Source: Thermoplasmatales archaeon SW_10_69_26
GTDB lineage: Archaea; Thermoplasmatota; SW-10-69-26
DNA length: 22,809 nt
Direction: 5' to 3'
Assembly (NCBI GenBank): GCA_003009755.1
Contig: PXUB01000008.1
Location: 1 to 22,809 of the forward strand
A model generated the notes under the pieces. That model made no database searches. It was given only the letters and a program-made list of their open reading frames with translations, and was not told the DNA's origin. The translations under genes were made by a program, and so were the position numbers. Positions 8,124 through 20,193 of this stretch are shown one piece after another (position 1 is the first letter of the stretch; every line of letters begins with the position of its first letter).

Positions 8124-9586
8124 AGGGCCGCAGCGTCACCACGGTTGCTGTTCGACTCGTAGAACGACAGGCCCTCGACCTCGTCCTCGTGGGGGCCCTC
8201 GTAGTCGAGGACGTACAGCCCGTTGCGGATGTCGACCACGTACACGAGCCCATCCTGGACGACGGGGTAGCTCCACATGCCGACCTTGACCGGACCCTGC
8301 GTGAGGGCCGGGTCCTCGACGGCGACCGCGGGCAGCGGCTCGGGTCGGAACTGGGCCACCTGCTCGGGCGCGCCCGGGTCCGAGATGTCCGCGACCACGA
8401 CGCCGCCAGCGTACCACGTGTGCAGCGCGAGGTTGGGGGTCACGGTCGGGTTGTGCGAGCTGTAGCTGGTCGTGTTCGAGGCGACCTGACCTTCGGGGGT
8501 CCGGCAGAAGCTGTCCGTGTTCTCCTCGATCTTGAACTCCGAGCGGACCTGCGGGTGCGCGGGGTCCGTCAGGTCGATGGCGCGCGCCCACGACCACGGG
8601 CACCCGGTGATCACGTCGCTGAAGCCGACCACCGGCGTGTTGCCGAGCCCGGCGTACCAGCCGTAGGTCTCGTCGGTCGTCCACACGTAGGGCCGGTCGG
8701 GCACCTTGACGGCGCTGTGGGCACCCGGGGAGCCCCAGCGCGCGCTGTCCTCGGGCGAGGTCACCAGTTGCATCTGGGGCTCGTCGGCGTCGGCCGCGAG
8801 GGCGCTCGTGTCGAGGACAGCCATGCCGCCCTCCGAGTGGGCGAGGTAGGCCCGCGTGCCGTCGGGGTGCACCGACAGCGAGTGCAGCGATCCCGGCAGG
8901 CCCCCATCCCAACTGGGGCCCTCCTCGACCGTGAGGCCGTCCGCCGTCGGCGACAGCTCGGCGACGAGGAGCTCGCCGTGGTCGCCGTGGGGTGTGGACT
9001 GGAACAGCAAGGCCCGTTGCGAGGGTCGGCTGGGGTCGATCCACAGGTGGAACTCGTGCGGCGTGTCGCGGGGATCGTAGGTGGCCAGGTGCTCGGGGTC
9101 CTCGGCGTGGGCGCCCGAGACGTCGTAGAGCTCGTACTCGGCGTCCGGCTGGGCGTCCTCGGCGTTGTAGCAGGCGTGGGCGGCCGGATCGCAGGGGATG
9201 TCGAGCACGATCAGCACGCCGGCGTCGGGCCACAGCCGGAGCTCGCGGCTGGACTCGCCGGGTTGGGCGTGATGGGGCTCGGCGATGCGGTCCACGACCT
9301 CCGGCTGGCTCGGGTCGCTCACGTCGACGACGAGCACGCCGGCCTGGGCGTGGGTGCCGTCGGCGCGGTACCCGACGTAAGCGTGGTCCTCGCCCACCGC
9401 CAAGGCCGAGTTCATCCCCCGACGGTCGAGCGGGCTGTGACCCACGACGTCCACCTGGTCGGTCGTCCGCTGGCCCCAGGGGCTCAGCGGCAGCTGTCCA
9501 GCGGCGGGCACGACCAGGGAGACCGCTGCGAGCACAGCCACGGCCGCGGCCAGCAGCGATCCCCGTTCTCCCCAGCGTCCATCCAC
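8108..9586 (-). CDS. Secreted LVIVD-repeat (beta-propeller) protein
   Basis: Start placed at GTG 9586 (signal peptide SLLAAAVAVLAAVSLVVPAAG). Repeats GVLVVDVSDPSQP, GMAVLDTS, AIDLTDPAHP, GVVVADISDPGAP, VYVVDIRNGLYVL. Confidence 0.85.
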   Translation of the reverse strand: MDGRWGERGSLLAAAVAVLAAVSLVVPAAGQLPLSPWGQRTTDQVDVVGHSPLDRRGMNSALAVGEDHAYVGYRADGTHAQAGVLVVDVSDPSQPEVVDRIAEPHHAQPGESSRELRLWPDAGVLIVLDIPCDPAAHACYNAEDAQPDAEYELYDVSGAHAEDPEHLATYDPRDTPHEFHLWIDPSRPSQRALLFQSTPHGDHGELLVAELSPTADGLTVEEGPSWDGGLPGSLHSLSVHPDGTRAYLAHSEGGMAVLDTSALAADADEPQMQLVTSPEDSARWGSPGAHSAVKVPDRPYVWTTDETYGWYAGLGNTPVVGFSDVITGCPWSWARAIDLTDPAHPQVRSEFKIEENTDSFCRTPEGQVASNTTSYSSHNPTVTPNLALHTWYAGGVVVADISDPGAPEQVAQFRPEPLPAVAVEDPALTQGPVKVGMWSYPVVQDGLVYVVDIRNGLYVLDYEGPHEDEVEGLSFYESNSNRGDAAALYGSS

Positions 9587-9700
9587 GGTTCCACTCCCAG
9601 CCCCCCATGCGTGACCGTGACAAAGACGTTGCGGGTGCCGGGATCGGGAGGCCGGCCAGCCCCCACGGGTCACCGATCGTCGGGCGGCGGAGGCCAGCCG

Positions 9701-9870
9701 CGCGCTGTAAGGATAAGAAATGGGGGGGACCACCAAGTACGCGAAGGGACGCCAGGGCACAAGGGGGAGCAGCTGCCGTGACAGAGCCGCCCGGCGGCGA
9801 GTCACTAGGCCCTTCGTGGCCTTGGCGATCCTTCGTGTCCTTCGCGGCCCCTGCTTAACGAGACAGCCCG
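9701..9870. mobile_element. MITE copy 1 (170 bp), complete
   Basis: Ends CGCGCTGTAAGGATAAG ... CTTAACGAGACAGCCCG form an imperfect TIR. Perfect 9-bp flanking direct repeat GGCCAGCCG at 9692-9700 and 9871-9879. Homologous to copies 2 and 3. Confidence 0.88.
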
Positions 9871-9919
9871 GGCCAGCCGGGCCCGCCCTTTCAAATAAGG
9901 AGGGGGCGTATGGCCGGGC

Positions 9920-11860
9920 GTGCGCCGCATCCTGGTCCCCGACGCCAGCGTCCTCGTGTCCGGTCGCTTGACCCACCTCATCGAGGAGGGCGACGTCGAG
10001 GAGGCGGATATCGTCGTGCCCGAGGCCGTGCTCGCCCAGCTCGAGCACCGTGCCGTCGAGGGCCGCGAGTCCGGCGTCACCGGCATCGACGAGGTCTCCA
10101 CGCTGCAGGACCTGGCCCGCGACGACCGGGAGATCGACGTCCACTTCACCGGCGAGCGTCCCCACCCCCGCGATCTCGAGCAGGAGAACGAGACCGAGAT
10201 CCGCGGCCGGATCCGCGAGGCCGCCAGCCAGGAGGGCGGTCAGCTGGTCACCAGCGACCGCGTGCAGGCCCACGTCTCCCGAGCCCGCGGCCTCAACGTC
10301 TGGTACCTGCATCCGTGGGCCGAGGAGGACGAGCCGGAGACCGAGGAGCTCGAGCTGTTCCGCTTCTTCGACGACGACGTGATGAGCGTCCACCTCAAGG
10401 CCGGCACCGCGCCCGTCGTCAAGCGCGGCACACCGGGCAGCATGCGGCTCGAGAAGCTGGCCGGGGGCCCGCTCGAGCACGCCGAACTGTCCCCGATCGC
10501 TCGCGAGATCATCGAGGGGGCCCGCCGCGATCCCGACGCCTTCGTCGAAATCGAACGCCCCGGCGCGACCGTGTGCCAGCTGGGCGCCACGCGCGTCACG
10601 ATCGGTCGCCCGCCCTTCTCCGAGGGCCTGGAGATCACGGCCACGCGCCCGGTCGCCAAGCTGGGCCTGGAAGCCTACGATCTGTCGGGCGAGATCCTCG
10701 AGCGCACGATCGACGGCTCGCGCGGCATCTTCATCTCCGGCAGCCCCGGGTCGGGCAAGTCCACGTTCGCCCAGGCGTTGGCCGACGAGCTGCACGGCCA
10801 GGACACCGTCGTCAAGACGATGGAGGCGCCTCGGGACCTGCAGGTCGACGAGGACATCACCCAGTACGCGCCGCTGGAGGGCTCGATGGAGCTCACCAGC
10901 GACGTCCTGTTGCTCGTGCGGCCCGACTACGTGATCTACGACGAGGTCCGCAAGACCGAGGACTTCTCGATCTTCGCCGACATGCGGCTGGCCGGCGTCG
11001 GCCTCGTCGGCGTCACGCACGCCAACCGCGCCATCGACGCCGTCCAACGCCTGCTGGGCCGCGTCGAGCTGGGCATGATCCCCCAGGTCGTCGACACCGT
11101 CATCCACATCGACCGCGGCCAGATCGACCACATCCTCGAGCTCGAGCTCACCGTCAAGGTGCCCGAGGGCATGCAGGAGGCCGACCTGGCTCGCCCGGTC
11201 GTCACCGTCAGCGACCACGGGACCGGTCGGGCGCTGCACGAGATCTACACGTACGGCGAGCAGACCGTCGTCATGCCGATCCAGGAGCCCGGCCAAGGCC
11301 CCGGCGGGCAGGATTCCCGCCGCGACGAGCTCGCCGAGAGCCAGCTGGCCTACAAGCTGCGCCGCCACATCGACGGCAACTTCGAGGTCGACGTCACCGG
11401 GTCCAACAGCGCAACCGTGTACGTCTCGCAGTCCCAGATCGCCAGCGTGATCGGCTCCGGCGGCCGCAACGTGCAGCGCCTGGAGGACCAGCTCGGCGTC
11501 GACCTGGACATCCGCACCTTCGAGGACAAGCGCGAGGAGGAGAGATCGCGGTCCTCGGGGGCATCGACGAGCTCGACCAGCTCGGGCCCTCACGGTGGCG
11601 GCGGTGGCGGATCGACGCCGGACGCCAGCGAGCGCTACCAGCAGCTCTCGCCGGAGGTCCGCCGCACCGAGCAGAACGTCGTCCTCGTCCTCAGCCCCGA
11701 GATGGCCGGCGAGCACGGCGCCGTCTACGTCGGCGACGAGCGCCTGTTCGCGGCCACGATCGGCCGCAACGGCGAGATCCGCGTCCGCCGCGGCTCGGCC
11801 GAGGGCCAACGCCTGCAACAGGCGTTCCGCGACGGGCCACCGGTCACCGTGCGGGTGTGA
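9920..11860 (+). CDS. PIN-domain P-loop ATPase with KH domain (archaeal PINA / PINc-VapC ATPase family)
   Basis: PIN N-terminus (ILVPDASVL, VPEAVLAQLE, LVTSD), Walker A GSPGSGKST, Walker B VIYDEVR, HANRAIDAVQR..GRVELGMIPQVVDT, KH motif VIGSGGRNV. Confidence 0.92.
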   Translation: MRRILVPDASVLVSGRLTHLIEEGDVEEADIVVPEAVLAQLEHRAVEGRESGVTGIDEVSTLQDLARDDREIDVHFTGERPHPRDLEQENETEIRGRIREAASQEGGQLVTSDRVQAHVSRARGLNVWYLHPWAEEDEPETEELELFRFFDDDVMSVHLKAGTAPVVKRGTPGSMRLEKLAGGPLEHAELSPIAREIIEGARRDPDAFVEIERPGATVCQLGATRVTIGRPPFSEGLEITATRPVAKLGLEAYDLSGEILERTIDGSRGIFISGSPGSGKSTFAQALADELHGQDTVVKTMEAPRDLQVDEDITQYAPLEGSMELTSDVLLLVRPDYVIYDEVRKTEDFSIFADMRLAGVGLVGVTHANRAIDAVQRLLGRVELGMIPQVVDTVIHIDRGQIDHILELELTVKVPEGMQEADLARPVVTVSDHGTGRALHEIYTYGEQTVVMPIQEPGQGPGGQDSRRDELAESQLAYKLRRHIDGNFEVDVTGSNSATVYVSQSQIASVIGSGGRNVQRLEDQLGVDLDIRTFEDKREEERSRSSGASTSSTSSGPHGGGGGGSTPDASERYQQLSPEVRRTEQNVVLVLSPEMAGEHGAVYVGDERLFAATIGRNGEIRVRRGSAEGQRLQQAFRDGPPVTVRV

Positions 11861-11861
11861 G

Positions 11862-12018
11862 TCCGGAGAGCGGCGAAACCGCCCGCTCTCCGGAGAGGCC
11901 GAATCTCCGATTCGGCCGAATTGCGAGGGTTCCTGCCGCCAGGCGAACCCTCGCATCCTTGCCGAAGGTTTTCTTCTTCCGGGGGTCGGCAGACACCGAG
12001 GCCCCCTGAAAAAGAAAA
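11862..12018. other. Array of adjacent hairpins downstream of the PINA gene (candidate structured RNA/terminator)
   Basis: Stems at 11862-11873/11883-11894 (12 bp), 11897-11905/11909-11917 (9 bp), 11922-11932/11945-11955 (11 bp) and 11957-11968, plus an imperfect stem at ~11969-12018. Confidence 0.6.
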
Positions 12019-12261
12019 CGTTCCGTCGTTGCCCGTCGAGCGCGCCTGGGGAACGAGCGCCCGAGGCAGCGGTGGCGTGCCCGCGCGGAGGAGGAGAGGA
12101 AGGCGGCCGACGAGTCGTGGTGGGAGCCTCCCCGGCGGCCGCCAGGCACCCGGCCCCCCGCTCGGTCCTCGCAGGGGTCAGGGCCCACCGAGGGCACGGT
12201 CGGGACCACGGATAACGTCGCTCAAGGCGACGGTTCGGGGCTTGCAAGGATGTCGTCCCCG

Positions 12262-14853
12262 TCAGAGGCTATCCATGGGGTCCGATCCCCCCCCCTCCCC
12301 CCAGAAGACGAGGACCGCCCCGTCGATCCGGTCGTCGTCGTCGGTCCGGTAGGGCTTGATGCGCAACCGGTAGCGGTTCCCCTCGTCGTCGGTGAGGCTG
12401 GTCCGGTTCACCGACAGCGTGTCGAGGACCTCGCGGATCTCGGCCTGCAGGTCCACGTCGAAGGGGATGTTGAGGTCGGCCAGCGGGCGGCCGACGTCGG
12501 CCGCGATCAGGCCCAGAAGCTCGGCCGCCTGCGGCGTGAACCGCCGGATGTCGAGCTCCGCGCCCAGCATGACGATCGGGAGACCGACGCCCTCGAGCAG
12601 GTTGACGAGGTCGGCGTTCACCTGCTTGATCTCCTCGTTGCGCTGCCGCAGCTCCTCGTTGGCGCGGTTGAGCTCCTCGTTGGTGGACTGCAGCTCCTCC
12701 TTCGTCGTCTCCAGCTCCTCGTTGGTGGACTGCAGCTCCTCGTTCGTGGAGAGAGCCTCCTCGTGCGCGGACCGCAGCTCCTCGTTCGTCGCCTCGTAGT
12801 CCTCGATCACGGACTGCAGGTAGCCGCGCGTGGCCTCCAGCTCCTCCTCGAGCTCCTGCACCCGCCCGGCGTCCTCGTCGGGCCCGGGCTCGAAGAGATC
12901 CCCGAGCAGCCCGCCGACGCGGTCGAACAGCCTTCCCTCGGTCCGCTGGGGGTCCTCGAAGGCGACCATCAGGTGCCCGGCTTGCGGGTCGCCCGGCGGC
13001 ACGGGGGCGACCTGGAGGCCGACCTCGCGGCGCTCGTCGCCGCGACGGAAGCGGACGGGCGCTCCGCGGACGGGCCCACCGGTCTCGCGGATCTCGTCCA
13101 CGGCCGAACGGATCGCCACGGCCAGACCGCGGGGCGCGATCCGCATCAGGTCCAGGCTGGCCTGGCCCTCCTCGGGATCCAGGTAGTCGCTCACGTCGCC
13201 GCGGAACTCGGTGACGGTGAGGTCCTCGTCGAGGACGATCGCCGGCGGGGCGTACAGGTCCAGCGCGACCTGGTCGACCTCGCGGCTCACGTCCTCCGGT
13301 TCCACGGGTCCACGATCTCCTCCCACGTCCGTCCGGCTCCGCGAGACCGTGCCCAGGCCCGTGGGTGCCACCGGGTGGCGGGCCTGGCTGGCTCGCTTGG
13401 GGCGGTAGATGTTGTGATCGTGGTCCAAGGGCTCGAAGAGCTTCTGGAAGCGGTGGACGCTCTCCGAGGAGCCGAGGACGAGGGCGCCCTCCGCGTCGAG
13501 CGCGTAGTGCAGCGCCCGCGCGACCTCCTCCTGGTGGTCGCGGTCGAGGTAGATGAGCATGTTGCGACAGCTGACGATGTCGATCTCCGAGAAGGGGGGA
13601 TCGTTGAGCAGGTCGTGGCGGGCGAACACGCAGGCGTCGCGCAACCGCTCCCGCACGCGGTAGGCGCCATCTTCCTCCACGAAGTGGCGCTCCAGGCGCT
13701 CGTCGCCGAGGTTGTCGGCGATCGCGAGCGGGTAGCGGGCCTCGCGCGCGATCTCGATCACGCGCTCGCTCACGTCGGTCCCGAACAGCTGTATCTCGCG
13801 GTCGAGGCCGCGCTCGGCGAGGTGCTCGTCGACGACCATCGCCAGCGTGTACACCTCCTCGCCGGTCGCACAGCCCGGCACCCAGATCCGGATCGGGTCC
13901 TCGTCCGTGTCGTCGACGAGCTCGGGGAGGACCTCGTCTTCGAGGGTCTGGAAGACCTCCGGGTCGCGGAGGAACTCGGTGACGTGGATCAGGCTCTCGT
14001 CGTGCAGGCGCCAGATCTCGTCGGCGTCCTCCTCCAAGCGATCGACGTAGTTGGCGATGCCGACCGTCCGCGTGGCGACCATGCGCCGACGGATGCGGCG
14101 GACCAGCGTCGAGCGCCGGTAGCGGGAGAAGTCCACGCCGGTCCGCTCGCGCACGCGGTCGAAGATCTCGGCAAGCGCGTCGTCTGGCAACGCGTCCGCG
14201 TCCCGGCGGCTGGCCCACCGGTCCCGGACGCGCTGGAGCTCGTCCGCGATCGCGGCGGGGGCCAGCACGTGGTCGACGTAGCCAGCCTCGATCGCGCTGC
14301 GCGGCATGCTCTCGTGCTTGGCGGTCTCGGGGTCCTGCACGATCGCGATGCCGCCGCGCTGCTGGATGGCTTGCAGGCCGCTGGCGCCGTCGGCGAGGCC
14401 GCCCGACAGGACCACACCGACGGCCTGGGCCCGGTAGGTGGCCGACAGGGACCGGAAGAAGCGATCGATCGCGTAGGAGATGGCATCCTCGTCCGCGACG
14501 ACGGGTGCCAGGCGATCATCCTCGACGCCGGGGACCTGACCGGATGGGGCGACGTGGACGACGTTCTCCTCGATCGCCATCCCCTCCTCGATCTCGACGA
14601 CGTCCATCTCGGTGGCGGCCGCCAACAGGTCGGTGAGCTGGCTCTCCTCTCCCGGCTCGCCGTGCGTGACGACGACGATCGCCATGCCCGGTTCAGCCGG
14701 CAGCTCGCCGAGCAGGGGCGAGAGGGCTCCGAGCCCGCCGGCCGAGGCCCCGACACCGACCACGGGGAACCCGTCGCGATCGGCGGATCCGAGAGCTCGC
14801 GCGGCGGGCCGGTCGGCGGCGGTGTCGGTCGGTTCCTCGCGGTCGTCGTGCAT
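12262..14853 (-). CDS. cheBR: CheB methylesterase-CheR methyltransferase fusion with coiled coil and C-terminal PAS domain
   Basis: CheB: [22 protein letters not shown]. CheR: [55 protein letters not shown]. Also [10 protein letters not shown] repeats and a PAS segment (IRRFTPQA...DVGRPL). Confidence 0.93.
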
Positions 14854-14894
14854 GGGAGCTTCGACCCAAGGCGCGCTCGTTGGAAAAGGGTTCC

Positions 14895-15593
14895 TCAGCC
14901 GCCCTCGGAGCTTGTGGTCTTCGTCGGCTTGGCGCTTTCCGCCTGTGGGAGATCCGAGCCGACCGAGAGGGCCGGACCGCGGAGCTGGTGCACCGCGTAG
15001 GCGGCGACGAGGCGTTCGATCCCCCGACGCAACAGCGTCGACAGCGACCCCGTCGACCGATCCATGTCCTCGGCCACGTCCGCCAGCTGGACCTCGCGAG
15101 GCACCGAGAAGTACCCGGCCTCGAAGGCGGCCAACACCGCCTCGCGCTCCTTGCGCGTGAGCGGGTCCTCGCTGTCAGCCTCGGGCTCGCCGTCGGGCTC
15201 GGTCACCTGCTTGAGCACCGCTTGGTCCCCCAACCCGTCGACGAACGCGGACACCTCGTCCCGGCGGCCGACGAGGGTCACGAGGGCCGATCCATCCTCG
15301 CTCACCACCACGGACGAGGAGGCGAAGTGATCGAAGATCTCGACCCACGGGGCCGGGAGCTCGTCGGTCTCGACGGCGAGGATGCGCTCGGCGGACCCGG
15401 CTTGGCGCACCGTGAAGCGCCCGTGCAGGCGGATCCAGGAGGTCAGCGCGTCTCGGTCGGCGTCCCGGCTCCAGAGGTAGAGGACCCACACCCCTCGGAC
15501 GTGGATCCCCCGCAGGTGGCACTCGACCGGAGGTTGACGGAAGCCGAGCACCTCCGCCGGGACCCTCACTTGCGCGTGCACGTCATCCGCCAT
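14895..15593 (-). CDS. HTH-10 (bacterio-opsin activator-type) transcriptional regulator
   Basis: C-terminal LTRKEREAVLAAFEAGYFSVPREVQLADVAEDMDRSTGSLSTLLRRGIERLV. Start placed at ATG 15593 because the longer ORF runs into MITE copy 2. Confidence 0.88.
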   Translation of the reverse strand: MADDVHAQVRVPAEVLGFRQPPVECHLRGIHVRGVWVLYLWSRDADRDALTSWIRLHGRFTVRQAGSAERILAVETDELPAPWVEIFDHFASSSVVVSEDGSALVTLVGRRDEVSAFVDGLGDQAVLKQVTEPDGEPEADSEDPLTRKEREAVLAAFEAGYFSVPREVQLADVAEDMDRSTGSLSTLLRRGIERLVAAYAVHQLRGPALSVGSDLPQAESAKPTKTTSSEGG

Positions 15594-15660
15594 CGCAGCG
15601 TTCCCCTTACAGCCCTCCCCATCGGCACCGCGACGGTTAGGTTTTGGCATGCCCCGGGCG

Positions 15661-15829
15661 CGGGCTGTGAGTATAAGAAACGGGGGGACCACCAAGTACG
15701 CGAAGGGACGCCAGGGGCACAAAGGAGAGCAGCTGCCGTGACAAAGCCGCCCGGCGGCGAGTCACAGGGCCTTCGTGGCCTTGGCGATCCCTCGTATCCT
15801 TCGCGGCCCCTGCTTAACGAGACAGCCCG
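15661..15829. mobile_element. MITE copy 2 (169 bp), complete
   Basis: Ends CGGGCTGTGAGTATAAG ... CTTAACGAGACAGCCCG with a perfect outer 8-bp IR. Flanks CCCCGGGCG (15652-15660) and CCCCCGGCG (15830-15838) match 8/9, consistent with a TSD. Confidence 0.85.
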
Positions 15830-15890
15830 CCCCCGGCGTTGAACCTCCTAGGACGAGGAACCATGCCCCCTTCCCGGAGTTGGTATACCT

Positions 15891-16607
15891 ATGAAAGGCA
15901 ACGGGGGGGCTGGCCGAAGCGATCGCGGCGACATCGACGAACGACTGGTCCGGCGCCTGAAGGCGATCGCCTCCCCGAGCCGATTGCAACTGCTCGCCCA
16001 GCTGAAGCAGCCGAGCCCTGTCTCGGAGATCCGGTTGGAAACCGCCGAGGACGAGGGTCGCGACGCGAAGATGACCGCGCAGGGGGTCCGCCACCACCTC
16101 GCCAAGCTCCGCAGCGCCGGGTTCGTCGAAAGCCGGTCCGTCGACAACGAGGGCCAGCGGGTGAACGAGTACCTGGCCCGGACGGACCAGCTCTACGAGC
16201 TCGCCGAGGCCATCCGGGCGATGCCGACAGCGCCTGGCGGCTCGATCGAGGACCTCGGCGCACCCCCGACGTGGGACCCGCCCGCGATGATCCCCTCGCT
16301 CACCGTCGTCCACGGCGAGGAGATCGGGCGCTCGTTCGCGCTCGCCGGCGAGCCGAGCTTCGAGCACCGCGGGTGGGTCATCGGCCAAGGCCCCAACGTC
16401 GACGTCCCCCTGGCGTGGGACGCCCTCGTGGACGATCAGGCCGGCGAGATCGAGCGCGAGGGCGGCGAGTTCCGCCTGATCGACCTGCGCTCGGCCTCCC
16501 GCCGGTTGTCCCTCAACGGCGAGGAGCTCGAGCGCGGCGCCAGCCGCCCGATCGCCGACGGCGACCTCGTCGGCGTCGGTCGCTCGCTTCTGTGCTTCCG
16601 CGAGTAG
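15891..16607 (+). CDS. ArsR-type HTH + FHA-like domain protein
   Basis: LKAIASPSRLQLLAQL...TAQGVRHHLAKLRSAGFV (ArsR wHTH). C-terminal WVIGQG...FRLIDLRS...LSLNGEEL...IADGDLVGVGRSLLCFR is FHA-like. Confidence 0.85.
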   Translation: MKGNGGAGRSDRGDIDERLVRRLKAIASPSRLQLLAQLKQPSPVSEIRLETAEDEGRDAKMTAQGVRHHLAKLRSAGFVESRSVDNEGQRVNEYLARTDQLYELAEAIRAMPTAPGGSIEDLGAPPTWDPPAMIPSLTVVHGEEIGRSFALAGEPSFEHRGWVIGQGPNVDVPLAWDALVDDQAGEIEREGGEFRLIDLRSASRRLSLNGEELERGASRPIADGDLVGVGRSLLCFRE

Positions 16608-16721
16608 CTGTCGGGATCTCCCCGCGAGCGAAGCCGTCCTCGCTGCCGCGAGGTGGGTTCATGTTCGGTCGACCCAAACCCCTCCAACGACGAGGGACCA
16701 TCCCTCGTTCGGGAGCCACCC

Positions 16722-18788
16722 GTGACCGAAGACGTCGACGAGGAGCCGCCGGGCTCGGACCAGGACGAGGCGATGGAACGCCGGTTGGCCCAAAGCCAGG
16801 CCCTGACCGAGTTCACCCAGCGCGCGCTCAAGGGCATGAACTTGGACTACCTGCTCCAGCAGGTGTGCGTGGCCATCGTCGACGTGCTCGAGACCGACTA
16901 CTGCGACGTGTTCCAGCTATTGCCCGAGAAGGAACAGCTGATTCTGCGCGCCGGCGTCGGCTGGCCTGAGGAATACTACGATACCAAGACGCTGGACACC
17001 TCGCCCGGGTCCCAGAGCGGCTACACGGTGAACACGTGGGAGCCGACCGTCGTCGAGGACATCGAAGAGGACGGGCGCTTCCGCCGGCCCGAACTGTTCG
17101 AGGAGGCCGAGGTCCGGGGTGGAGTCACCGTCACCGTGCCCGGACCCGACGTGCCGTGGGGCGTGTTCGGCGTCCACTCGCGCGAGCCGCGCTCCTTCGA
17201 CCAGTACGATGTGACCTTCGTCCAGTCGATGGGCCAGGTCCTCAGCCAGGCCGTGCAACGCGCCCGTTCCGAGCGCGCCATCCAGGACGAGAAACGACGC
17301 TTCGAGAGCCTCCTCCAGGAGGCCGAGGACTACGCCATCTTCAGCCTCAACCCGGAGGGACACGTCGACAGCTGGGCCCTCGGCGCCGAGCGCATGATGG
17401 GGTACACCGAGAAGGAGATCCTCGGCATGCACTTCCAGATCCTTTACCCCGAGGAGAAACGCCGGGAGGGCCGCCCGATGCACGACCTCCAGCGAGCCCT
17501 CGCGCAGGGTGGCGCCGAGGACGAGGGCTGGCGGATCCGCAAGGACGGCTCCCGGTTCTGGGCCAACGTGACGATCAACCCCTATCACGACGAGGAGGGC
17601 AACCACCAGGGGTTCTGGAAGATCGTGTACGACATGACCGAGCGGGTCGAGCGCGAGCGCGAGCTCGAGCGCAGCGAGCGGCGCTACCGTGCGCTCGTCG
17701 AGAACTTCCCGAACGGCAACGTCGGCATCTTCGACCGCGATCTCACCTATCGAGCCGTGGGCGGCGAGCTGTTCGCGGAGGTCGGCGTCGACCCGGAGCA
17801 GCGGCTGGGGCGATCGATCTTGGAGGCCTACCCGGAGGACATCGTCGAGGAGGCCGAGGAGCACTTCCGCGCCGCCCTGGCAGGCGAACCCCGGTCCTTC
17901 GAGGTCGATTTCTACGGCCGCCACCTCCAGGTCCGCACCGTCCCGCTGCGGGACAGCGAGGGCGACGTCTTCGCCGGACTGGTCATGGCCCAGGACGTCA
18001 CCGAGCGGGAGATCTACGAGGACAAGCTCGAGGAGTCCAACCAACGGCTCGAGCAGTTCGCCTACGCCGCCAGCCACGACCTGCAAGAACCGCTGCGGAT
18101 GGTGACCAGCTACCTGGAGCTCGTCGACGACCGCTACGGCGAGCAGTTCGACGAGGAGGGCCGCGAGTTCATGCGGCACGCCCTCGACGGCGCCGAGCGC
18201 ATGAGCCGCCTGATCGACAGCCTGCTCGCCTACGCCCGCGTGGCCGGGGAAGGCGCCGAGACCCAGCGGGTGGATACCCAGGCGGTCTTCGAAGATGCTC
18301 TCCACGACCTCGAGATGCACATCCAGGAGACCGGGGCCGAGGTGGTGGCCGAGCCCCTACCCGACGTCGAGGCCGACCCCAACCTGCTGGCCCAGGTGTT
18401 CCGCAACCTCCTGTCGAACGCGCTCAAGTACAGCGGCGACGAACCGCCTCGGGTCCACGTCGGGGCCGACCGCGCGGGGGACCGCTGGCGGTTCTGGGTC
18501 GAGGACGAGGGCATCGGCATCGAGGAGACGGACATCGATCGCATCTTCGACGTCTTCGAGCGCGTCAGCGACCCGCGGACCGACGAGGAGGACCAGGGGG
18601 CCGGGGTCGGGCTGGCGATCTGCCAGCAGATCGTCGACCGCCACGGCGGGGAGATGGACGTCGAAAGCGTGCCTGGCGAGGGCTCGGTCTTCTCCTTCAC
18701 GATGCCGGCCGCCGACACGATCGAGCCCCCCGAGCCCGACCACCCGGGCACGGAGGGAGCCTCCAGCGCGGCCGCGGCGTCGGAGTGA
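16722..18788 (+). CDS. Soluble sensor histidine kinase, GAF-PAS-PAS-HisKA-HATPase
   Basis: GAF (LILRAGVGW...GVFGVHSREPRSF), PAS (YAIFSLNPEGHVDSW...EGWRIRKDGSRFWANV), second PAS, H-box FAYAASHDLQEPLR, N-box NLLSNALKY, DEGIGI, GAGVGLAIC. Start uncertain (GTG 16722 or 16653/16660). Confidence 0.93.
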   Translation: MTEDVDEEPPGSDQDEAMERRLAQSQALTEFTQRALKGMNLDYLLQQVCVAIVDVLETDYCDVFQLLPEKEQLILRAGVGWPEEYYDTKTLDTSPGSQSGYTVNTWEPTVVEDIEEDGRFRRPELFEEAEVRGGVTVTVPGPDVPWGVFGVHSREPRSFDQYDVTFVQSMGQVLSQAVQRARSERAIQDEKRRFESLLQEAEDYAIFSLNPEGHVDSWALGAERMMGYTEKEILGMHFQILYPEEKRREGRPMHDLQRALAQGGAEDEGWRIRKDGSRFWANVTINPYHDEEGNHQGFWKIVYDMTERVERERELERSERRYRALVENFPNGNVGIFDRDLTYRAVGGELFAEVGVDPEQRLGRSILEAYPEDIVEEAEEHFRAALAGEPRSFEVDFYGRHLQVRTVPLRDSEGDVFAGLVMAQDVTEREIYEDKLEESNQRLEQFAYAASHDLQEPLRMVTSYLELVDDRYGEQFDEEGREFMRHALDGAERMSRLIDSLLAYARVAGEGAETQRVDTQAVFEDALHDLEMHIQETGAEVVAEPLPDVEADPNLLAQVFRNLLSNALKYSGDEPPRVHVGADRAGDRWRFWVEDEGIGIEETDIDRIFDVFERVSDPRTDEEDQGAGVGLAICQQIVDRHGGEMDVESVPGEGSVFSFTMPAADTIEPPEPDHPGTEGASSAAAASE

Positions 18789-18805
18789 CCCCGCATCGTC
18801 GGCCC

Positions 18806-18950
18806 CGCGCTGTAGGGATAAGAAACGGGGGGGGACCATCAAGTACGCGAGGGGACGCCAGGGCACAACGGGGAGCAGCTGCCGTGACAACGCCGCCCGG
18901 CGGCGAGTCACAGGCCCTTCGTGGCCTTGGCGATCCTTCGTGTCCTTCGC
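18806..18950. mobile_element. MITE copy 3, right end truncated
   Basis: Starts CGCGCTGTAGGGATAAG and aligns with copies 1 and 2 to ...GTGTCCTTCGC at 18950. The right TIR and the second TSD are missing. Confidence 0.85.
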
Positions 18951-19666
18951 AGTCCTACGAGCTGCTGGCCCACCACTACGACGCCATCCACCGATCCAAA
19001 ACCTACCGGCGCGAGGCCGACCGGGTGCTGGCCCACCTCGACCACCAGCTCGAGGGTCCCGGCGACCAGCTGCTGGGCGTGGCCTGCGGATCGGGGCGCC
19101 ACATCGCCGAGTTCACCCACCGCTACGCGTGCCTGGGCGTCGACGCCAACGCCGGCATGCTGCGCCTGGCCCGCGACCGGGTGCCCCAGGCGCGGTTCGT
19201 GCAGGCCGACATGCGCGAGCTGTGCCTCGCCAAGCGGTTCGACGCGCTCACGTGCCTGTTCGGCTCGATCGGCTACCTGCGGACGTGGGCCAACCTCGCG
19301 CAGGCCGTCGAGCGCTTCGCCGACCACCTCCGCGAGGGCGGCGCCTTCGCGATCGAGAGCTGGATCCCGCCCGAGCGTCTGCGCAAGCCCCTGCGCAAGG
19401 TCCGTTCCTACGAGGACGGCGACCGCGCCATCGCCCGCGTCGGGGTCGCCTCGCCGCCTGTGGATGGCTGCAGCGAGCTCACGCTCGAGTGGCTGATCGC
19501 CGAGGAGGGCGAGGAGATCAGCCGGCACACCGAGCACCAGCGGTTGGGCGTGTTCGGCGTCGACGAGACGCTGGATCTGCTCGCCGAGCACGGCCTCGAA
19601 GCGACCGTCGACGAGCAGGGCCTCACCGAGGACCGCGTCCTGTTCGTCGGGAACCGCGTGGGATAG
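18884..19666 (+). CDS. Class I SAM-dependent methyltransferase, 5' end abutting/fused to MITE copy 3 (possibly pseudogene)
   Basis: From 18953: SYELLAHHYDAIHRSKTY...LLGVACGSGRH...GVDANAGML...FVQADMREL...FDALTCLFGSIGY...HLREGG. The nearest in-frame start is GTG 18884 inside the MITE. Confidence 0.75.
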   Translation: MTTPPGGESQALRGLGDPSCPSQSYELLAHHYDAIHRSKTYRREADRVLAHLDHQLEGPGDQLLGVACGSGRHIAEFTHRYACLGVDANAGMLRLARDRVPQARFVQADMRELCLAKRFDALTCLFGSIGYLRTWANLAQAVERFADHLREGGAFAIESWIPPERLRKPLRKVRSYEDGDRAIARVGVASPPVDGCSELTLEWLIAEEGEEISRHTEHQRLGVFGVDETLDLLAEHGLEATVDEQGLTEDRVLFVGNRVG

Positions 19667-19766
19667 GGAGCACGAGGGACACCAAGGTGAAGGGCACGAA
19701 GGGACAAGCTGGGGAGGTCAGGGTGGGGACCACGAGGGACACCAAGGGGGCTAAGGGCACGAAGGA
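19666..19766. repeat. Two tandem ~40-bp 'TKDTK-type' repeats built of ~9-nt units CAC(G/C)A(A/G)GG
   Basis: GGGAGCACGAGGGACACCAAGGTGAAGGGCACGAAGGGA (19666-19704) and GGGGACCACGAGGGACACCAAGGGGGCTAAGGGCACGAAGGA (19725-19766); both are similar to the MITE arms. Confidence 0.85.
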
Positions 19767-19830
19767 CCGAGCAGGGAAGGCGGCAGGCAACGCCGGGCCG
19801 TCCGACGGAGTGGGAAGGGCCCGTGGAAGA

Positions 19831-19950
19831 TCAAAGGATCAAACGCTTGATGCCGTTTCGGAGGTGGGGGTTCGCCGACGTTCAGCAGAAAGCCAAGACG
19901 CTTCCCCGTGGCCTCCAGATACGTGAGGGTCTGAGCCGTGTGAGCGGACG
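19831..19950 (-). pseudogene. C-terminal remnant of a GxxExxY (PD-(D/E)XK nuclease superfamily) gene, frameshifted
   Basis: Minus strand reads HTAQTLTYLEATGKRLGFLLNVGEP. Removing one base from the G5 run (19866-19870) continues it as HLRNGIKRLIL-stop (19831-19833), matching the family C-terminus H.AQLL.YL..TG...GLL.NF....L..GIKR.IL. The N-terminal GxxExxY motif is absent. Confidence 0.8.
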
Positions 19951-20040
19951 CGAAGGGATTTGGAATCCCCGCTCCGGAGAACCCGGGGGGTAGGGCGTCT
20001 GAGCCCACCCCCGCTCCCAATCGCAAGACGCCGTCCGCCG

Positions 20041-20072
20041 CCCCCCGCTCGGGGGGCTCTCCTTTTCTTTCT
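20041..20072 (+). terminator. Possible terminator-like hairpin with T-rich tail
   Basis: CCCCCC-GCTC-GGGGGG stem-loop followed by CTCTCCTTTTCTTTCT. Confidence 0.3.
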
Positions 20073-20193
20073 ATTACGCTCACCCAGCGTCAGCTGCGTC
20101 GATTTCAGCAGGACCTTGTCAAAGCCGCGAGCGATCCCCAGCTGATCGAGCTGGGCATCCCACCGTCCTGGCCGCTGGCCCTCGCCATGCACC

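Follow-up and report, generated by a model that had tools for sequence, protein, structure and literature searches.

What moves the short repeat that occurs three times on contig PXUB01000008.1 of the Thermoplasmatales archaeon SW_10_69_26, and what decides where it comes to rest? The contig (22,809 nucleotides (nt), hereafter the window) is contig C8 of assembly GCA_003009755.1, which comprises 2.82 Mb on 49 contigs with 69% G+C and is 95% complete; the source genome is referred to as G000 and its contigs by C-numbers. Sequencing runs that contain the window sequence carry the label halite metagenome. [quoted passage not shown] A check of the sequence bears out the copies, their positions, their common orientation, their TIRs and both duplications. 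Fixed placement next to promoters lies beyond what that annotation had claimed, and the promoter-edge register of the copies is what is new here. The sequence comparisons show the repeat to be a real MITE, point to an IS6-like insertion sequence (IS) as its partner and suggest that insertion is probably directed to the upstream border of archaeal core promoters.

The blastn search of the genome that had been proposed for the element, with copy 1 as query, returned 47 copies or fragments on 27 of the 49 contigs, at 80-96% identity. The element is about 168 bp long (162-172 bp in nearly all copies), has no open reading frame (ORF) of its own and consists of one long imperfect palindrome, the outer ~25 nt of which are the TIRs. 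Two-ended copies begin with CG(C/G)GCTGT-N5-TAAG and finish with CTTA-N5-ACAGCC(C/G)G, and when the copies are aligned, conservation stops sharply at CG(C/G)GCTGT on the left and at ACAGCC(C/G)G on the right. Copy 1 folds as a single long imperfect hairpin (-84.2 kcal/mol, z -3.5, none of 200 shuffles as good), and both strands form such a hairpin, at -84 and -80 kcal/mol (z about -3.5). With the ends held fixed, TSDs are perfect at 18 of the 34 two-ended copies without N and 8/9 at seven; the remaining nine score 5 or less, several of them reaching 7-9/9 once one end is shifted by 1 base. The proposed tabulation of flanks therefore sets 25/34 copies with at least 8/9 agreement against 3/1122 control pairs, in which left and right flanks were taken from different copies. 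Only a duplication length of 9 works, since a length of 8 gives one perfect copy and a length of 10 none, and agreement between the flanks is 25-31/34 at each of exactly nine positions, against 13-16 just beside them. Three extra copies whose left TIR carries a small deletion have TSDs of 9/9, 9/9 and 8/9. The nine duplicated bases differ from site to site, as expected of independent insertions. Short, non-coding and palindromic, with TIRs, variable 9-bp TSDs and 47 copies, the repeat is confirmed as a MITE.

The copies have a median identity of 95% with their consensus and of 92% with one another, and 0/595 pairs reach 99%; the family is therefore not young, in agreement with the earlier view that the copies are not very recent. 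The density of copies in the window had been attributed to either a high genome-wide copy number or a hotspot. The copy number is indeed high and is by itself sufficient to explain three copies in 9.3 kb, as random placement of 47 positions put three of them together within 9.3 kb somewhere in 34% of simulations, whereas an insertion hotspot was rejected, a chance cluster of this kind having P = 0.34. Summed depth of Logan contigs, in the run with the largest share, is about 345 in element bins versus about 12. On C6 (21089-21387), two copies stand head to tail, the second starting at approximately element position 39-48 directly after the first.

Of the 47 copies, 19 are in divergent and 21 in tandem spacers, five overlap a called ORF, one is at a contig edge and one is in a convergent spacer, although convergent spacers account for 358/2013 of those in the genome. 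Spacers of tandem gene pairs have a median of 90 nt. The distance from an element end to the facing start codon, with gene starts predicted by a simple, crude GC-frame score, is 46-54 nt in 19 of the 35 two-ended copies used in the promoter tests and 29-45 nt in none; sorted, the distances run 28, 46, 47 (four copies), 48, 49 (five), 50 (two), 51 (two), 52 (two), 53, 54, 62 and onwards. With offsets counted as nt outside an element end and away from the element, the flank is laid out as element end, 9-bp TSD, about 10 nt often with a CGCAAC-like TFB-recognition element (BRE), a TATA-like box, about 25 nt and the start codon. In a test that is independent of gene calls, 29/35 copies had a heptamer with A or T at no fewer than five positions that began 17-24 nt beyond an element end, on one side only in 28 of them, as against 24% of 5000 random intergenic positions. 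When all 69 flanks are taken without selection, A and T make up a fraction of 0.51-0.54 at offsets 16-17, of 0.52-0.61 at offsets 21-24 and mostly of 0.15-0.39 elsewhere. Once copies are oriented by the box, A is found at offset 16 and at offset 17 in 18/27 each, T at 21 in 23/27 and A or T at 23 in 27/27. The duplicated bases themselves are GC-rich and without consensus, and the end that faces the box is the left one in 17 copies and the right one in 11.

Upstream of 1098 genes of this genome, in which a gene for the TATA-binding protein (TBP) is present, the AT profile peaks at -35 to -33, -29 to -26 and -11/-10 from the start codon, which is the pattern of leaderless archaeal promoters. These peaks coincide with the boxes beside the elements, and the boxes thus sit at promoter positions. 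For the gene next to copy 1, the TTTCAAATAA box and the GTG start have the same spacing in the orthologues of all four related genomes examined, where no element occurs in the 260 nt upstream and the far flank is not syntenic.

A transposase of the DDE type had been anticipated from the TIRs and the TSD length, with the IS256, IS4/IS10 and IS5/IS903 groups as examples, and none had been seen in the window. Nor was a transposase found in the window when 18 ORFs were scanned with Pfam and the whole genome was searched with an IS6 profile. A genome search for the end motifs, which puts into effect the suggested search for TIRs near transposase genes, gave extra solitary ends on C38 and C41 that belong to an element of about 800 bp. 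Copies of this IS lie at C38:59702-60500, C41:50952-51749 and C36:10916-11692, and C37 has two fragments. The IS measures 799-804 bp and has a single ORF of 238 aa, which is unbroken on C38 and C36 but split on C41; its copies are 82-85% identical to that on C38 (blastn), and the mean column identity of the three-copy alignment is 84%. One IS end, CGGGCTGTCTAGTTAAGCG, agrees with the right end of the MITE, CGGGCTGTCTCGTTAAGCA, at 18/21 positions over the searched motif (C38, C41), and the agreement between the other IS end and the left end of the MITE is weaker, about 12/17 by eye.

The 238-aa protein matches the NCBIfam model transpos_IS6 (NF033587) with E 6e-21 and 75 bits, below the cut-off of 125 bits, and the archaeal ISC774 model with E 2.5e-11, also below the curated cut-off. 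All 15 aligned homologues match transpos_IS6 (best E 9.8e-31), again under 125 bits; Pfam matches are weak (DDE_Tnp_IS240, PF13610, in 12/15 homologues), and D89, D164 and E192 are invariant in the alignment. The transposase is rare, with 24 relatives among 5.8 billion clustered proteins, none of which has a precomputed Pfam domain, and one relative in GTDB genome contigs; of 82 pattern matches in JGI metagenome contigs none was confirmed. No other IS6-like gene was found in the source genome by the IS6 profile search. The TIR core of the IS, CTGTCTAGTT, is identical to canonical haloarchaeal IS6 tips, GGCACTGTCTAGTT, with CTGT and then CTAGTT in common. Matching ends, a DDE protein with IS6 profile matches and this common core lead us to call the partner a divergent IS6-like IS, with profile scores below cut-off, and the repeat its putative MITE. 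The expectation of a DDE enzyme is supported, and the groups that had been named give way to a divergent IS6-like one. We infer that this particular transposase mobilised the MITE in trans.

The full-length IS is also found at promoter boxes. On C38 the flank reads TGGGAGTCC GCTAGGAACA TTTAAG.., with AA at offsets 16-17, TTTAA at 20-24 and an ATG 48 nt out. Among relatives of the IS in other genomes, that in G001 (same family) has AA at 16-17 and TTTT at 21-24, that in G013 has AA at 15-16 and TTTT at 21-24, and that in G016 has CATAT at 21-25 and an ATG at 54. Duplications of the same length as at the MITE occur in relatives of the IS, namely CCTCTAGCC/CCTCAAGCC in G001 (8/9 in register 9), a perfect 9-bp TAAGGAGGT in G052 and 9 or 10 bp in G013, depending on one ambiguous base. 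On haloarchaeal plasmids, two of four copies of a clade with 30-34% transposase identity end 53-58 nt upstream of an annotated start, a lead rather than a count. These two copies (L069, Salinigranum rubrum; L070, Natrinema pellirubrum) encode a 33%-identical transposase, have an AT-rich box near offset 20 and precede the start codons of an IclR regulator and a restriction endonuclease. The promoter-edge habit may exist in cultured haloarchaea, and the reading of promoters may extend to IS relatives on the plasmids of Salinigranum and Natrinema.

In the available text of two accounts, members of the IS6 family are described as 700-890 bp long, with 8-bp TSDs, GG tips, a cTGTt motif and cointegrate formation (PMC7986276; PMC6807381). 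The archaeal clade of IS6/IS26 (ISH14, ISH15, ISH29) resembles the partner in its length of ~800 bp, its one ORF and its DDE transposase matching IS6 profiles. The tips of the partner are CG, CC or GC, as opposed to GG in the IS6 family, and its relatives and the MITE share a TSD of 9 bp, in contrast to the 8 bp given as usual for IS6 in the accessible part of PMC7986276; ISfinder records with 9-bp TSDs, ISH15 (ends CG/CA) and ISPfu5, are nevertheless to be seen in Table 5 of PMC6807381, as far as that source was available. Transposase identity is 25-28% to annotated haloarchaeal IS6 and 30-34% to a plasmid group labelled 'DDE-type integrase/transposase/recombinase'. Of seven canonical plasmid IS6 copies, whose tips were set by anchored tip sequences, two have perfect 8-bp TSDs, CCTAAATA and TCCATATT, which are AT-rich, and there is no box at offsets 16-24. 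The perfect duplications, at L075 (Haladaptatus sp.) and L078 (Natrinema sp.), are themselves TATA-like. This hints at a different, AT-directed target habit of canonical haloarchaeal IS6.

Among MITEs, ISfinder lists MITEBth2 and MITEHarch3 (227 and 336 bp) for IS6 in the accessible text of PMC7986276 and PMC6807381; as described there, both are likewise non-autonomous, with IS6-type ends and no transposase, and the present element differs from them in being shorter (168 bp) and of another lineage. The MITEs and small mobile repeats of Haloquadratum walsbyi are also archaeal, halophilic and without transposase, with ends that resemble those of resident IS in the terminal bases only; some have strong target preferences, which in the part of the source at hand are for other mobile elements (PATEs, IS605-type) and not for promoters (PMC3119063). 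In the available portions of the literature on IS6 and archaeal MITEs, there is no report of promoter-register insertion by an archaeal IS (PMC7986276; PMC6807381; PMC6640164; PMC11602168; PMC3119063).

In the mechanism that we propose, the ~168-bp non-autonomous MITE would be moved, now or formerly, in trans by the 238-aa DDE transposase of the resident ~800-bp IS6-like IS. The transposase complex would read the basal promoter and integrate at its upstream edge by cuts staggered by 9 bp. In the register observed, the duplicated 9 bp occupy about -49 to -41 relative to the start codons of genes that are mostly leaderless, with a BRE-like AA 16-17 nt and a TATA-like TTTWW 20-24 nt outside the element, and either end can point toward the promoter. 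The signal that is read might be the BRE/TATA sequence as such or, alternatively, DNA that TBP and TFB have bound and bent. As the core promoter would be left intact, such sites would offer a safe landing place in a compact genome. The chances appear evenly balanced that this holds in its general form, in which an IS6-like clade together with its MITE reads the basal promoter, as BRE/TATA or as TBP-TFB complex, and integrates with a 9-bp stagger at -49 to -41.

The main rival to targeting is survival alone, in which the same MITE inserts roughly at random and purifying selection removes insertions into genes and core promoters, leaving the strip upstream of the BRE as the nearest tolerated place. 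A null model of selection only, in which a copy may land anywhere in its own spacer with equal probability as long as it spares 40 nt or more upstream of a start, predicts 5.25/34 copies at 46-54 nt, against 18 observed; none of 200,000 simulations reached 18, the maximum being 15. The excess is also found where there was room to land elsewhere, as 7 of the 21 copies from spacers that were at least 150 nt before insertion are at 46-54 nt, against 1.34 expected (P about 9e-5), and 19/21 have the box in register. Moreover, the register is sharp to about 1 nt, as seen in the T at offset 21, and IS copies of three other genomes share it. The rival draws support from the age of the copies, which has given survival bias time to act, from the many short spacers, such as those of tandem pairs, and from several sites that are almost the only ones allowed; C20:39261 has 1 allowed position, and about eight of the 19 in-register copies are in spacers without any other tolerated site. 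Survival alone is considered an unlikely explanation. From the 18 copies against 5.25 expected, the excess in long spacers and the full-length IS in the same register, we infer that targeting is active and that the pattern is not just what selection has spared. Retention for another reason can also be envisaged, with copies elsewhere lost and the element kept near promoters, where its TIR or hairpin could act, for example, as a regulator site upstream, insulate adjacent transcription units from each other or terminate transcription of the upstream gene. The strong hairpin, the fixed spacing to the core promoter and the truncated copies that abut start codons of same-direction genes, as if supplying upstream sequence, would fit such a role; both orientations are found, though (17 versus 11), full-length IS copies adopt this register although their interiors differ, no theme unites the neighbouring genes, the copies decay like neutral DNA and no Rfam family matches, and a retained function is thus very improbable. 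It is also improbable that the MITE was moved by another transposase, missing from the 95%-complete assembly, and that the likeness of its ends to the IS is a family trait only. Likeness limited to the outer ~20 nt (no interior similarity to the IS by blastn), the poorer fit of the second IS end and the lack of TSDs at the IS copies of the source genome would all be accounted for in this way, but the IS6 profile search finds no second candidate in the genome, and relatives of the IS show both the same unusual 9-bp TSD length (8/9 in G001, perfect in G052) and the same promoter register.

Several observations weigh against integration at promoter edges by an IS6-like partner. No empty or polymorphic site was seen in Logan contigs of four halite runs, which end at the repeat, at the element edges, and so cannot show an empty allele; Logan joints over 9000-19600 are repeat-to-repeat jumps, none of which removes exactly one element and one TSD, and are uninformative either way. 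The element was not found in any of the remaining 20 genomes of its class (completeness 72-100%; the searched collection has 21 species genomes of the class), with none in G001 or G041, nor in JGI metagenome contigs searched with an exact 31-base pattern or in plasmids searched by blastn, and in 40 relatives searched there were only three chance-level matches, to the CCTTCGTGGCCTTGG stretch. The three IS copies in the source genome show no TSDs; of those with an intact end, the copy on C36 has no box and that on C41 is off by 1-2 nt. The IS6 profile scores are below curated cut-offs. Gene starts are crude GC-frame predictions as distinct from mapped transcription starts. Finally, IS6 elements are described, in the parts of the sources available, as forming cointegrates with 8-bp duplications (PMC7986276; PMC6807381), from which one would not predict that a 168-bp element inserts simply and cleanly, flanked by 9-bp TSDs. 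Such insertions speak for a different pathway or for efficient resolution but fall short of proof.

The MITE family alone would be an ordinary addition, an IS6-like MITE in an uncultured halite archaeon. The fixed distance to BRE and TATA in both orientations, also for full-length IS elsewhere, points to promoter-guided integration by an archaeal DDE transposase. The question of whether archaeal 'IS6' elements transpose like IS26 is also affected, as simple insertions flanked by 9 bp are unlike obligatory cointegrates. Retrotransposons targeted to RNA polymerase III genes provide a parallel: Ty3 integrates at TFIIIB-bound start sites, and TRE5-A of Dictyostelium integrates ~48 bp upstream of tRNA genes. 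If targeting is true, the archaeal elements would resemble both in their fixed distance from a complex of TBP/TFIIB-like factors and in the use of a safe haven in a compact genome, and would be a prokaryotic equivalent of retrotransposons that TFIIIB guides in yeast and Dictyostelium. The likeness is one of analogy only, as the retrotransposons use reverse transcription and an integrase, against the DDE transposase of an IS, and there is no homology. Targeting would also offer a simple system for how a transposase senses the archaeal pre-initiation complex or its DNA signature, would explain the persistence of such elements in genomes with very little spare DNA and would provide a natural tool to mark or perturb promoters. 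The 47 element sites can serve as promoter markers in a genome without transcript data.

Four copies, namely copy 3 of the window and those at C19:31769, C35:21773 and C23:40440, are cut off at an identical position, which is exactly the inner border of the right TIR. None of these has a TSD, and each runs into a different coding N-terminus. On C35, C23 and C2, the intact left end is still 49-54 nt from the leftward gene. The copies on these three contigs look like deletions from inside the element into the promoter of the neighbour. Copy 3 follows the family sequence as far as ..GTGTCCTTCGC, with the last 25 nt gone, and an in-frame GTG of the adjoining methyltransferase frame is found at 18884, inside the copy. 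One Logan contig matches 18951-19600 without mismatch, but its 167 upstream letters do not fit the window, and the right junction of copy 3 (18950/18951) may therefore be a variant or a misjoin.

Features of the window associated with the three MITE copies (positions in the 22,809-nt window)
Feature	Positions	Strand	Remarks
Left TSD of copy 1, GGCCAGCCG	9692..9700		9/9 pair
MITE copy 1, complete (170 bp) with both TIRs	9701..9870	+	
Right TSD of copy 1, GGCCAGCCG	9871..9879		9/9 pair
TATA-like box TTTCAAATAA of the GTG-9920 gene	9889..9898	+	starts 19 nt outside the right end of copy 1
Gene 3' of copy 1: PilT/T2SSE-type ATPase with KH domain	9920..11860	+	Pfam; start 49 nt from element end
BRE/TATA-like stretch AAAACCTAACC	15635..15645	-	16-26 nt outside the left end of copy 2
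Left TSD of copy 2, CCCCGGGCG	15652..15660		8/9 pair
MITE copy 2, full length 169 bp	15661..15829	+	
Right TSD of copy 2, CCCCCGGCG	15830..15838		8/9 pair
MITE copy 3, truncated, 145 bp including left TIR	18806..18950	+	25-nt right TIR and TSD absent
S-adenosylmethionine (SAM)-dependent methyltransferase frame	18953..19666	+	Pfam; begins directly at the break of copy 3

The box beside copy 2, which is weaker than most, faces an HTH_10 gene on the minus strand (14895-15593), whose predicted start is 67 nt from the element. In the spacer between them, at 15600-15620 (minus strand) and ~40 nt from copy 2, the stretch GGGCTGTAAGGGGAACG is similar to the left end of the MITE (GCTGTAAGG...AACG), and it could be a relic of another MITE end or a chance likeness. 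A scan of the window with Rfam at the gathering threshold found no families.

Elsewhere in the window, eight tandem units of 21 nt (seven codons) at 12632-12846 lie inside a CheB-CheR-PAS fusion gene (12262-14853, minus strand), in which they probably encode a coiled-coil linker. The end of the contig (19700-22809) differs from the rest in composition or coding status; no ORF there passes the GC-frame gene score, and four ORFs tried gave no Pfam family except for a weak PD-(D/E)XK match at 19751-20083. The region 19640-19900 was considered as a fourth copy and rejected, as it occurs only there, contains an internal duplication and has merely a style of short units in common with the element. 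At 19660-19790, single-copy sequence is built of CACGAGGGACACCAAGG-like units; this short-unit style is also that of the MITE arms, with their CCTTCGYGN units, and of a hairpin in a related genome (L004, G002). The interior of the MITE may have been derived from such native hairpins.

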